Below are positions 6,730-45,324 of a stretch of DNA of 64,000 nucleotides, piece after piece. Source of the DNA: Patescibacteria group bacterium (GTDB taxonomy: Bacteria; Patescibacteriota; Dojkabacteria; GCA-002793355). Location of the stretch: contig BOKM01000001.1 in the NCBI GenBank assembly GCA_016860985.1, positions 220,185 through 284,184 on the forward strand. The letters are read 5' to 3'. Positions within the stretch are counted from its first letter, which is position 1, and each line of letters opens with the position of its first letter. Made by a program: the position numbers and the translations under genes. Under the pieces are notes generated by a model. It searched no databases, had not been told where the DNA came from, and was given only the letters and a program-made list of their open reading frames with translations.

Positions 6730-7347
6730 CTAACTTGACGGCATTCTACCTGTCACAGCACGCTTTGTCAACACAGGAGTCCCCAACTTCAGGACACCTT
6801 TCACTTTCTCCCCTTTCTGCCATACGCGACTTCCCACCCATTCCCATTTTGATTTCATTTGCACAAGTCCTTTTTTTCGGAAATCTTTAAGGTAATTACC
6901 TATAAATTGCGGTAGCTGCTGAAACGGTTCGGTACTTGATATTCCTTCTTCAAGTTTAATTTCAGCTGAAAAATCATTAAGCGCCGCAACAAGAATCGGC
7001 ATATCGCCACGGGTGACACTTGATATAGTGCCAATCTTGAAGTAGCCTCCTTCTGTTTCCAATCGAATATCGATTGGATGGATAGGTCTAGACTTCAGTT
7101 CTTTCAACTTCCACATAAATAAAGCGCCAAGATTTCCACTCGCCTCAGAAGAAGCGGTTACATAGTGAAGCGCATCCATTATTAGCTCCTGCTCTTCGTT
7201 CTTAGCAATTTTCATATACAACGCCTTATGGCGTGGATCATTAAGCTTTTGAGTCAAGAGCATCCCAAGTTCCTGAAATGGATACCGAATACGATTACGA
7301 CGAGCATTTATCTCCTCTACTATTTGTTGAAGATTGATAGTAAGCAT
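6730..7347 (-). CDS. hypothetical protein (B')
   Basis: The called ORF 6730..7515 reads as out-of-frame junk for its first ~55 codons, where it overlaps the upstream gene. The plausible start is the MLTINLQQ Met, giving about 206 aa. No recognisable domain. Confidence 0.35.
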   Translation of the reverse strand: MLTINLQQIVEEINARRNRIRYPFQELGMLLTQKLNDPRHKALYMKIAKNEEQELIMDALHYVTASSEASGNLGALFMWKLKELKSRPIHPIDIRLETEGGYFKIGTISSVTRGDMPILVAALNDFSAEIKLEEGISSTEPFQQLPQFIGNYLKDFRKKGLVQMKSKWEWVGSRVWQKGEKVKGVLKLGTPVLTKRAVTGRMPSS

Positions 7348-7354
7348 CTTCGCC

Positions 7355-7753
7355 TTATTGGATATTTCCGATATTATATGCCCCAAGTTCCTCTGCAGGC
7401 ACTCGCTCGCCACTATCAACAAATCTTGGGGCCAAGGTTCGTCTTCTTTGATCACCCTGTAAACGCAAATACTGAATCCTCGACTGTTCCGAATCGTCAT
7501 GAAGGTCCAAGTCAACTACTGCGACATATCGGAGTGTTGCCCTAATACGTTCACCTCCAGGAGAAACTAATGTTCCTCCTAATATGAGTTCTGGTGCGGA
7601 AACAACAAGTAGTCTATTCGCTCCGACGTGGGTTTTTGCTTGACTGTTGGGATTATCCGGGTTCGCATATGTTTGAAGCGCCTCGCGTTCGTCGACCTGT
7701 GGCAACGTTTGCAAAATCATACCGGGAAAAACTTCAGCTGGTTCTTCTCTCAT
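7355..7753 (-). CDS. hypothetical protein (A'), Arg/Glu/Pro-rich
   Basis: 132 aa. Its local GC and amino-acid composition (R, E, P, A, G) differ from the K/I/N-rich genes around it. Contains GGTLVSPGG...VAVVDLDLHDD, vaguely nucleotidyltransferase-like, but the spacing is atypical. Confidence 0.35.
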   Translation of the reverse strand: MREEPAEVFPGMILQTLPQVDEREALQTYANPDNPNSQAKTHVGANRLLVVSAPELILGGTLVSPGGERIRATLRYVAVVDLDLHDDSEQSRIQYLRLQGDQRRRTLAPRFVDSGERVPAEELGAYNIGNIQ

Positions 7754-7772
7754 AATGGAGATTATACAGTAA

Positions 7773-7905
7773 TGCCGCTACGGGGAATCGCCTACCTCGT
7801 AATATATTCATTGGCGCTACGCGTACTAAGGGATTACGTCCTCAGGCCCTCCCGCTTCGTCGAATGTACATTGTTACATTCTCCTTGGGGTTTCGATTCC
7901 TCCAT
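7773..7905 (-). repeat. conserved tRNA-Glu-associated element, copy A
   Basis: In minus orientation it ends GGCGATTCCCCGTAGCGGCA, the same as the last ~18 nt of tRNA-Glu, but without the 5' T-stem strand. The interior is homologous to copy B (45007..45137), and an internal hairpin shows compensatory changes (ATGTAACAATGTACAT versus ATGTGCCAACGCACAT). Confidence 0.5.
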
Positions 7906-7996
7906 TTTTATGATTTCACAAATTCATTTTAGTTAAGTGTTTGGAATAAATAAAAACAACTAGATGGTTGTTTCGCAAAACAAAAAATTTGTGAAA

Positions 7997-8068
7997 TGCC
8001 GCTACGGGGAATCGAACCCCGCCTCCTAGGATGAGAACCTAGTGTCCTAGCCGATAGACGATAGCGGC
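7997..8068 (-). tRNA. tRNA-Glu (anticodon CUC)
   Basis: Hand-folded cloverleaf GCCGCTA/TAGCGGC acceptor, TTCGATT T-loop and anticodon loop TTCTCAT. CCA is not encoded. Confidence 0.85.
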
Positions 8069-8106
8069 GAATGTGGAATTATAGCAAATTATTTTGTCAA
8101 AAGGTA

Positions 8107-39296: not shown

Positions 39297-39350
39297 TTCA
39301 CAATTCAGACTATGGCAGAAAATCTAATTTCAGGTATAATTCCAAAGATT

Positions 39351-39438
39351 GGAGAGGTGTCTGAGTGGTCGAAAGAGCTCCCCTGGAAAGGGAGTATACC
39401 CATTACGGGTATCGAGGGTTCGAATCCCTCCTTCTCCG
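39351..39438 (+). tRNA. tRNA-Ser (anticodon GGA)
   Basis: 88 nt with a long variable arm. Anticodon loop CTGGAAA, T-arm GAGGGTTCGAATCCCTC, acceptor GGAGAGG/CTTCTCC. Confidence 0.85.
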
Positions 39439-39439
39439 A

Positions 39440-39545
39440 ATTTCAAATTTTTCCCATTTCGCTCGAAGAATATCTTCATATTCTTCTTGTCGATCATGGC
39501 TCAAAATTCGAAATTCGGGAAATGGTAAAAGTTTGAAATTAGAAA
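39440..39545 (+). repeat. long imperfect inverted repeat (about 24 bp arms) with nested palindrome, immediately 3' of tRNA-Ser
   Basis: Arms AATTTCAAATTTTTCCCATTTCG and CGAAATTCGGGAAATGGTAAAAGTTTGAAATT. The inner palindrome is AGAATATCTTCATATTCT. Confidence 0.4.
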
Positions 39546-39803
39546 CAGTATGGGATGAAGAAACCCAAGGAGAACAAACAGTTTTGTTCGACGCAGGGCG
39601 GGGTTGCGCGCAAGGTCCGCTAATATTTATAACGTAGTATTTCAGAGCTGAGGCATGGAGCCTGAAATACAAGGGTAGCCGAATCCCAATTGCGAATAAG
39701 GTTGGGGAACTACCTCTTTGTAGAACAAAACTTCCGCGAGGTGACCGAATCCCTTATTGCACCAACCTACGTGAAAAAAATACCGCTTTAACTGCTTCTA
39801 ATT

Positions 39804-44886: not shown

Positions 44887-45006
44887 AATGTGGTACTTGT
44901 AAAGTGGAGACGCTACGTTTCACGGTGACGAACATTTAGCAAAAACAACGTACCGTTCAGCTGGAAATTGATATTGACTGCCAGGGAAATATGAGAAAGT
45001 TGAGTG

Positions 45007-45137
45007 TACCGCTACGGGGAGTCGCTCACCTCGTAACCCTCCTACTTTCGCTACGCGTTCTAATGCGTTACTTCCTTGAGCCCACCCACTTCGTCAAATG
45101 TGCGTTGGCACATTTTTCTTGGGGTTTCTCCTCCCTC
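45007..45137 (-). repeat. conserved tRNA-Glu-associated element, copy B
   Basis: Homologous to copy A. In minus orientation it ends GAGCGACTCCCCGTAGCGGTA, mimicking the 3' end of the adjacent tRNA-Glu(UUC). Confidence 0.5.
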
Positions 45138-45140
45138 GAA

Positions 45141-45186
45141 CATCATAAAAAAAGGGTTTAGGATTCTTCGAATCGCAAACCCCTTT
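45141..45186 (-). terminator. intrinsic terminator-like hairpin immediately 3' of tRNA-Glu(UUC)
   Basis: Minus strand AAAAGGGTTT-N17-AAACCCTTTTTTT, a stem followed by a U-run. Confidence 0.45.
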
Positions 45187-45259
45187 TTGCCGCTACGGGG
45201 AGTCGAACCCCGCCTAGAGGATTGAAAATCCTCTGTCCTAACCGATAGACGATAGCGGC
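45187..45259 (-). tRNA. tRNA-Glu (anticodon UUC)
   Basis: Hand-folded. Anticodon stem-loop GAGGA-TTTTCAA-TCCTC, T-loop TTCGACT, acceptor GCCGCTA/TAGCGGC. Confidence 0.85.
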
Positions 45260-45324
45260 ATGGGTGAATTATACAAAATCTTACAAATATAATCAACTCG
45301 CGTGCAGTGTTATAATGTGACCTT

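Follow-up and report, generated by a model that had tools for sequence, protein, structure and literature searches.

We describe here three copies (A, B and C) of what we believe, on balance, to be an undescribed family of small, non-coding and non-autonomous insertion elements that Dojkabacteria carry at the 3′ ends of their tRNA genes. The units are protein-less; they have a direct repeat of the tRNA that starts at C56, a fold under selection that is read on the tRNA strand and a 5′ segment that complements the T-arm. Usually, a unit is composed of a hairpin (H0) abutting the tRNA, a short A/T-rich linker, a scaffold of ~110 nt (helices P1 to P5) and the repeat, and measures ~125-225 bp. It is likely that these are mobile non-coding elements whose fold is under selection. 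No description of such an element was found in the literature that we searched, the coverage of which is incomplete.

The window, i.e. the whole 64-kb stretch of DNA that was analysed, is core chromosome, with a ribosomal-protein operon, rpoA, infA, tuf/fus-like genes, lepB and parB. Upstream of tRNA-Glu(CTC) is encoded an HD-domain protein whose homologues are found in Candidatus Dojkabacteria (candidate phyla radiation). ARAGORN and Rfam agree with the earlier note, made from the sequence alone, that both tRNA-Glu genes lie on the minus strand. The two genes and their promoters are near-identical except for the anticodon arm, as seen from the alignment of the loci. With the covariance model described below, no scaffold copy was detected behind the tRNA-Leu(TAG) gene of the window. 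The features of the two tRNA-Glu loci are the following:

7997..8068, minus strand: tRNA-Glu(CTC), target gene of copy A (ARAGORN; Rfam tRNA model, 56.4 bits)
7995..8014, minus strand: direct repeat 1 of copy A, CGATTCCCCGTAGCGGCATT, corresponding to tRNA C56 to A73 plus 2 nt (exact 20-mer found twice)
7914..7996, minus strand: hairpin H0 of copy A (fold −15 kcal/mol, z-score −2.4)
7791..7903, minus strand: scaffold of copy A (covariance-model match 7770-7905, 152 bits)
7895-7902, minus strand: P1 5′ strand of copy A, antisense to the T-arm
7887-7890 with 7851-7855, minus strand: P2 of copy A
7862-7881, minus strand: P3 hairpin of copy A
7843-7847 with 7790-7794, minus strand: P4 of copy A
7833-7837 with 7799-7803, minus strand: P5 of copy A
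7771..7790, minus strand: direct repeat 2 of copy A, the “tRNA 3′ end mimic” (exact 20-mer)
7771..7994, minus strand: 224 bp present in the window and missing from the empty site of relatives (alignment with L027, L028, L030 and L001)
45188..45259, minus strand: tRNA-Glu(TTC), target gene of copy B (ARAGORN; Rfam)
45188-45205, minus strand: direct repeat 1 of copy B, the last 18 nt of tRNA-Glu(TTC)
45150..45187, minus strand: hairpin H0 of copy B, from +1 after the tRNA and then seven U (fold −16.8 kcal/mol, z-score −3.4)
45025..45137, minus strand: scaffold of copy B (covariance-model match 45004-45139, 150 bits; aligned with copy A)
45007..45024, minus strand: direct repeat 2 of copy B, 17/18 bases identical to the tRNA 3′ end

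The regions downstream of the two tRNA-Glu genes align. A homologous element of ~130 nt had been proposed behind both genes: the homology is borne out by the alignment, in which the conserved block measures ~115 nt. While the scaffold is conserved, the hairpin and the linker that separate it from the tRNA are unrelated in A and B. Likewise, the spacer of 90-100 nt that had been given for both loci is correct for locus A (91 nt), but locus B has a 48-nt gap that is almost all one hairpin. Within the window, the 16-nt interior motif GACGAAGNGGGNGGGC is confined to the two tRNA-Glu elements, and the scaffold displays a conserved loop, ACGCGUAGCG, which is invariant, as is a GACGAAG segment. A coding element was considered and rejected: the frame of the short ORFs is not the same in A as in B, and a stop breaks the ORF in A.

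The motif CGAYTCCCCGTAGCGG is found four times in the window, once in each tRNA-Glu and once at the end of each element, where ~0.19 chance matches are expected; its variable base Y agrees with the adjacent tRNA at both loci. That the last ~18 nt of the element reproduce the tRNA 3′ end is true of both loci, with a length that is 20 nt and exact in A and 17/18 bases in B. The first 7-8 nt of repeat 2 of copy A are also the 3′ strand of P1. In every repeat that is still recognisable, the first base of identity to the tRNA is exactly T-loop position C56, with no identical base leftward. Exact runs reach 20 nt in copy A, 18 nt in L015 and 14 nt in L020 (tRNA-Thr), and 16 nt followed by a mismatch in copy B (L numbers are our handles for the loci of relatives). 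The repeat of L035 is 29 nt long with one mismatch and covers 11 nt of locus-specific trailer, a value that 0/3000 shuffles reach. Since the start at C56 is constant and the length is 18, 20 or 29 nt, the left edge of the repeat is fixed and its right edge variable. In the old copies (L007, L026 and copy C), the T-loop and T-stem part of the repeat alone is left, CGAAUCCC. A long repeat at the tRNA-Leu mini copy of L035 was discarded as not significant, 483/3000 shuffles reaching it.

Relatives of the window were gathered through contigs encoding a Dojkabacteria-specific protein of 205 aa that adjoins locus A. In L027 (GCA_049325555.1) and L028, this neighbour is 95% identical to that of the window, and the promoter and the tRNA are the same. 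Both have a precise empty site at tRNA-Glu(CTC): the tRNA is directly followed by TTACTGTATAATCTCCATTATGAGAG..., which in the window stands directly after repeat 2 (the tRNA mimic) of copy A. The repeats of the tRNA 3′ end thus bound a discrete insertion, as had been suggested. Apart from the repeat, this insert comprises 204 bp, and no ORF in it is conserved; the register of the 224 bp (7771..7994) is ambiguous owing to the 20-nt repeat, and one register is given here. The tRNA-Glu(CTC) locus is also without the element in L001, L030, L031 and L032, and is occupied in the more distant L015 (MAG SJ560). In L037, which shares its MAG with L015, and in L034-36 (from the complete genome CP129470.1), locus B is occupied; it is empty in L033 and L038. 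The difference at locus A is an insertion/deletion polymorphism, with which a gain in the window and a loss in the relatives both fit. Empty sites could equally come from deletion between the repeats, with alleles spread by homologous recombination, and active transposition is therefore unproven.

A third copy lies on the opposite strand of the window, behind tRNA-Ser(GGA):

39351..39438, plus strand: tRNA-Ser(GGA), target gene of copy C (ARAGORN; Rfam)
39439..39540, plus strand: hairpin H0 of copy C, ~100 nt, next to the tRNA end (fold −31.4 kcal/mol, z-score −4.9)
39548..39700, plus strand: copy C, degenerate scaffold (covariance-model match 33.9 bits, E ~2e-7)
39701..39753, plus strand: remnant of a further copy, of which the scaffold 3′ part (..CGCGAGGTGAC) alone is left (read from the sequence)

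The repeat of copy C is reduced to its T-loop part, CGAATCCC, at 39680-39687. The remnant that follows is 5′-truncated and ends in a second CGAATCCC (39746-39753). This degenerate copy behind tRNA-Ser(GGA) was missed in the earlier note.

Species-representative genomes and JGI metagenomes were searched by pattern scans, and then with a covariance model built from four compact copies. Chance matches made up 9/11 of the pattern-scan matches in genomes and 3/9 of those in metagenomes, and a metagenome pattern derived from the 3′ half of the scaffold gave no matches. With the covariance model, 13 copies were identified, other Dojkabacteria included, behind tRNA-Glu(CTC), Glu(TTC), Thr(GGT), Lys(CTT), Ser(GGA) and Leu(TAG). 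All have the orientation of the tRNA and lie within its transcription unit or immediately after it. Tandem copies occur twice, as two copies at a contig end in L026 and as copy C with its remnant in the window. The architecture of the scaffold is variable: L026 and L018 have an extra domain of ~100 nt inside P5, and a mini copy in L035 lacks both P4 and P5.

Scaffold identity tracks the genome and not the tRNA. Indeed, the copies of L015 (Glu-CTC) and L037 (Glu-TTC), which belong to one MAG, are 93% identical, hairpin included, and the Glu and Leu copies of CP129470.1 (L035) are 82% identical. The Thr copy, with 79% identity, is as close to copy A as any Glu copy, and copies A and B are about 71-77% identical with unrelated hairpins. 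This kinship by genome rather than by tRNA indicates that the element has moved between tRNA species within lineages. Co-duplication with tRNA-Glu, one of the two explanations first offered for the element, is at odds with the presence of the scaffold behind Thr, Lys, Ser and Leu tRNAs, with its absence from orthologous tRNA-Glu loci and with its clustering by genome.

Applied to copies A and B alone, RNAalifold gives five helices with compensatory changes in six pairs, and the same helices are recovered from the alignment of the 13 copies. Among these 13 copies, which represent about seven lineages, 94% of the cells are standard pairs, versus 38-49% with slid partners, and both-sided changes are seen in 19/30 pairs; 0/500 shuffles reach the observed values, which were counted on an alignment fitted to the covariance model, a procedure that favours structure. 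The hairpin with compensatory substitutions and the selection on interior base pairing that had been read from two copies are thereby confirmed. In L026-1 and in copy C, the sequence of the P3 hairpin is wholly different and its pairing is kept. Moreover, the fold and P1 are kept even where the repeat tail has decayed (L007, L026 and copy C). At its base, P4 keeps a G-U pair in 10/13 copies; this pair would be a C-A mismatch on the other strand, which indicates that the folded strand is the tRNA strand. By generic criteria, the scaffold behaves as a structured RNA, with compensatory changes beyond controls and a strand-specific G-U pair.

The scaffold opens with 13-14 nt that are antisense to the T-arm of the tRNA (positions ~50-63). 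In copy A, the scaffold start GGAAUCGAAACCCC is the reverse complement of the T-arm GGGGUUCGAUUCC plus one extra base. Over 13 nt, copy A, L020 and L007 match the reverse complement of their own T-arm near-perfectly (≤4/2000 shuffles; 4/2000 for copy A itself); copy B, L015 and copy C match less well. Within the folded scaffold, this antisense stretch forms P1 with the duplicated T-loop segment and P2 with an internal G-run. Opposite tRNA nucleotide 59, P1 has an A-U, G-C or U-A pair, in four copies each, following the tRNA. Similarly, the tRNA-Leu copy of L035 has a GAGGAG segment that complements the CUCCUC of that tRNA. The idea that the extra base of the segment is fixed at 55/56 was abandoned, its placement being possible anywhere in 53-56.

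A terminator-like hairpin had been noted behind each tRNA-Glu. The hairpin is supported by folding, from the first base after the tRNA, and is not called as a terminator by a simple scan. In the H0 of copy A, a smaller hairpin with a U tail lies within a long outer stem that starts from this base. One long hairpin takes up the interval from tRNA +1 to ~10 nt short of the scaffold in seven copies, with z-scores of −2.4 to −7.5. Among 26 tRNA loci, a strong hairpin at +1 is found essentially only at the Dojkabacteria loci that bear the scaffold, and L015, L037, L020 and L007 have a common hairpin foot, AAUGG...CCAUU; these two observations indicate that hairpin and scaffold travel together. The CP129470.1 subfamily lacks the hairpin, and units exist with or without H0. 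H0 resembles a terminator that would stop read-through from the tRNA.

How might such units spread? We propose that they are moved in trans by an enzyme encoded elsewhere. The target would be duplicated on insertion, with one break fixed at 55/56 in the T-loop and a second, less precise break at the tRNA end or up to 11 nt beyond. Such a duplication would leave the tRNA intact and each copy would gain a repeat matching its own tRNA. As read on the tRNA strand, the folded scaffold may serve as a cis-acting recognition or guide module, in which the antisense 5′ segment would select the T-arm. An insertion that creates the repeat is favoured because the tRNA is intact at unrelated targets, because one repeat includes locus-specific trailer and because one edge of the repeat is fixed while the other varies. 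We thus lean towards a duplicative rather than a conservative insertion. Pfam searches of 28 window ORFs and 10 flank ORFs detected no integrase, transposase, Cas1, HUH enzyme or reverse transcriptase, and only housekeeping proteins; neither were PolB, TnpA and TnpB found among these ORFs.

An RNA intermediate in this movement is a tentative proposal, which we find somewhat more likely than a DNA intermediate. The scaffold would be transcribed with or behind the tRNA and then copied back, SINE-like, in a target-primed reaction. Such an intermediate is consistent with a 3′ end that is constant, a 5′ end that is variable or truncated, ends without terminal inverted repeats, a G-U pair specific to one strand and a location within the transcription unit of the tRNA. 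SINEs and non-autonomous retroposons are eukaryotic, with R2-like co-transcription with a host RNA gene. Like them, the units are short, non-coding and structured, lie within the transcription unit of a host RNA gene, have a duplication of variable length, one constant end and one variable or truncated end, and must be moved in trans. As in retroposons, we found a repeat of 18-29 nt with a fixed C56 edge, H0 present or absent, and a 5′-truncated remnant (39701-39753). The elements differ from SINE-like retroposons by the absence of a reverse transcriptase partner in the window and flanks, by the absence of an A-rich tail, and by a scaffold that has no recognisable tRNA origin (no Rfam tRNA match). 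To our knowledge, bacteria have neither a SINE-like system nor target-primed reverse transcription of a non-intron RNA.

More doubtful still is a stand-alone guide-RNA element, the scaffold transcript of which would find tRNA genes by pairing with the T-arm before being copied back into DNA. Copying could be target-primed from a nick at 55/56, or carried out by an RNA-guided integrase encoded elsewhere, and retargeting would take a change of the guide alone. The IS110 bridge RNA (PMC11208160), the TnpB omega RNA and the group I/II intron guides are also structured RNAs of ~100-180 nt with a target-complementary segment and, as for omega RNA, the target sequence lies directly 3′ of the scaffold. 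In contrast to these mobile-element RNAs, the Dojkabacteria units have no recombinase or nuclease gene and no Rfam match, and their occupied site keeps the target intact; moreover, guide-bearing systems themselves make no duplication of 18-29 nt. The bridge RNA of IS110 has an adjacent DEDD recombinase and two internal loops, which pair with target and donor on both strands, whereas here there is no adjacent ORF and complementarity was found to one T-arm strand only. IS200/IS605 elements with omega RNA differ from our units, which have a hairpin at one end only, a duplication, and no TnpA or TnpB; in addition, IS605-related and HEARO motifs gave no Rfam match.

The main rival to a repeat-creating insertion, which we hold to be unlikely, is a miniature integrative element or an integrase scar, with a tyrosine or other conservative recombinase acting in trans at a T-loop core. 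The element would then bring a new tRNA 3′ end and a terminator (attL), the displaced original end downstream would be attR, and the scaffold would be the P arm or a small RNA gene spanning attP. A repeat running from the T-loop to or past the tRNA end is the classic tyrosine-integrase signature of tRNA-borne islands (PMC4383910). Just as in the islands found by Islander, the target is a tRNA 3′ end, the tRNA is intact and a displaced 3′ copy starting in the T-loop lies at the far end; a regenerated tRNA and such a displaced fragment are how these islands are delimited (PMC4383910). The tandem arrays behind one tRNA (L026, copy C) also occur in islands and are typical of repeated integration, and we infer that a circular form would join scaffold, core and H0 into an RNA gene with its own terminator. 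Nevertheless, the units are 125-225 bp long, and not kilobases, which is very small for the excision of a circle, and they have no cargo. No integrase was detected in the 64-kb window or among the flanks that were examined. Viral contigs, in two pattern scans, and phage and plasmid records, by blastn, gave no match, so that a phage or plasmid origin was set aside, and no free (attP) form was found in these three sources. Related scaffolds are found at five or six tRNA species, including Glu and Leu in one genome, and conservative recombination at a non-cognate tRNA would give a chimeric, inactive tRNA. Unlike in islands, there is one repeat with a locus-specific trailer, the 29 nt of L035, which argues against an identity block pre-existing in a free attP since an incoming attP should not carry such a trailer. 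Finally, the conserved part of the units is a covarying fold with a 5′ end antisense to the target, and compensatory changes are unexpected for protein-binding arm sites. Of the att-site scar proposed in the earlier note, the repeats bounding a discrete insertion are therefore retained, and a plain integrase scar is doubtful in view of the missing integrase, the size of ~125-225 bp, the trailer in one repeat and the conserved part, which resembles a folded strand rather than arm sites bound by a protein.

It is improbable that the scaffold is instead a host-beneficial, non-selfish small RNA derived from the 3′ trailer of the tRNA, such as a regulator or a sponge that pairs with the T-arm, with ordinary recombination accounting for its gain, loss and copying among tRNA loci. 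The constant tRNA strand, the position in or just behind the tRNA transcription unit and the survival of the fold and P1 in old copies with a decayed repeat (L007, L026, copy C) would all suit such an RNA, as would L035, where no hairpin separates tRNA and scaffold and co-transcription is likely. 3′ETS-leuZ of E. coli is a tRNA 3′ external-transcribed-spacer RNA and a fixed part of one operon; it is likewise a functional RNA in a tRNA gene trailer. Unlike the units, 3′ETS RNAs are not mobile, are not found at many tRNAs and have no flanking copy of the tRNA end. The element is also dispensable, since several relatives lack it at the same loci; comparison of the loci revealed no conserved neighbour gene, and simple scans called no promoter or terminator of its own, conserved or not. 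Ordinary recombination leaves the cognate repeats starting at C56 at unrelated tRNAs unexplained.

Slightly less probable again is a DNA transposon that would use a staggered-cut integrase of the casposase/Cas1 type or a single-strand HUH transposase, with H0 and the folded scaffold as single-stranded-DNA recognition structures. The casposase of Aciduliprofundum boonei provides a precedent: it inserts beside tRNA-Pro with a 15-bp duplication overlapping the tRNA 3′ end, and requires a T-loop segment as “leader” (PMC5137440). Casposons thus share with the units the insertion at a tRNA end, the long duplication overlapping the 3′ end and the T-loop in the recognised target (PMC5137440). Similarly, long near-perfect hairpins at one end and a guide pairing with the cleavage site recall the ends of IS200/IS605, and the growth of arrays at the tRNA-proximal repeat resembles spacer insertion. 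But casposons are large, with Cas1, PolB, terminal inverted repeats and a fixed duplication of 14-15 bp, none of which is seen here, and IS200/IS605 elements produce no duplication. Neither Cas1, PolB, TnpA nor TnpB was detected nearby. The 224-bp insert has no terminal inverted repeats at its ends and the length of the repeat (18, 20 or 29 nt) is not fixed, which also sets the units apart from MITEs. In DNA, moreover, the conserved G-U would be a weak G-T pair. As for a functionless, recent segmental duplication of the tRNA-Glu locus, with the similarity reflecting shared ancestry, the near-identity of the two genes and promoters outside the anticodon arm is what it predicts. It is refuted by the unrelated hairpins and linkers of A and B next to a conserved scaffold, by family members behind further tRNAs and in further genomes, by the site left empty in close relatives and by the strong covariation.

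If the family is confirmed, the small genomes of the candidate phyla radiation, poor in classical transposons, bear a mobile element without a protein, aimed at the tRNA T-arm, the most conserved hairpin of the cell. It would account for displaced tRNA 3′ fragments that have no island, and which island-finding software would call decayed prophage scars. The antisense segment changes with the tRNA, suggesting that the choice of target is written in nucleic acid, and nucleic-acid-coded targeting is what made bridge RNAs and omega RNAs useful. The family would also be a test case for bacterial RNA-mediated copy-and-paste outside group II introns and, if the guide-RNA reading holds, the first transposon of a SINE-like or stand-alone guide-RNA kind to be described in bacteria.

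With Rfam, at gathering thresholds and at E values up to 10, tRNAs alone score, and the known ribozymes, riboswitches and group I/II introns gave no match. The 5′ end of the element bears a likeness to the 5′ region of E. coli ssrA; a tmRNA-like fragment was dismissed, no tmRNA model scoring even at E up to 10. By eye, −10-like boxes can be seen upstream of the scaffold, but they are too close to it: the RNA would start inside P1.

Tandem arrangement of the scaffold, the conserved fold of about 110 nt with helices P1-P5, was found in L026, and some copies of the family contain an additional domain in P5.

L026 6713-7300 (-): at least two tandem scaffolds, at the contig end
L018 1-260 and L007 326-472: copies at the orthologous tRNA-Lys locus
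L026 6740-6880 (-) and L018 35-165: extra domain of about 100 nt in P5

In L026, the spacers of the tandem copies have a repeated motif in common (AAGTAAAAGCGAACAAA), and the contig break probably falls within a longer scaffold array. At the tRNA-Lys locus, L018 presents a complete large scaffold with a second 3' domain behind it. The copy of L007, an old one with a decayed repeat, is hybrid: its 5' domain is joined directly to the counterpart of that second 3' domain. This hybrid looks like the product of a deletion or of recombination between tandem copies. The extra P5 domain, for which no Rfam match was found in L026 or L018, harbours conserved hairpins of its own (GUGAUCA.CCAUCAC and AAGGAUUCAA..UUCCUU).

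The complete genome CP129470.1 offers a further pairing possibility.

L035 2355-2380 (CP129470.1): 11-nt trailer of tRNA-Glu(TTC) and scaffold start

Because this trailer, GATCATTCCTT, located behind tRNA-Glu(TTC), is complementary to the scaffold 5' strand GGGAATCG, trailer and scaffold start can form a local hairpin, which is present in the computed fold.

The two tRNA-Glu genes of the window (7997-8068(-), CTC; 45188-45259(-), TTC) differ, apart from the anticodon arm, solely at nucleotide 59; the -10 regions upstream of them also resemble each other. Together, this resemblance suggests that the CTC gene is recently derived from the TTC gene, or that both have undergone concerted evolution.

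8069-8100, 45260-45300 and 39312-39340: tRNA upstream regions with a TATAAT box

The box lies 7-10 nt before the tRNA gene starts and is preceded by TG (TTTGCTATAAT, TTTTGTATAAT). As the -35 box is weak or absent at these tRNA genes, the organism's promoters seem to belong to the extended -10 class.

On one side of copy A, the element behind tRNA-Glu(CTC), lie two genes.

7355-7753 (-): 132-aa ORF, between copy A and a conserved 205-aa gene
6733-7347 (-): 205-aa protein gene, just upstream of infA

The 132-aa ORF has no Pfam match. The same slot is occupied in L001 and L030 by an unrelated 148-aa ORF (BLASTP E = 27) and, in L015, contains no gene; it is a small hypervariable gene slot adjoining the tRNA. 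The 205-aa gene stands at the head of the ribosomal-protein genes that follow downstream (rpsM, rpsK, rpsD, rpoA). Its product, in which no Pfam domain was found, is specific to the clade and conserved in position, with only 25 homologues among 5.8 billion proteins, the named ones all belonging to Dojkabacteria or unclassified Patescibacteria.
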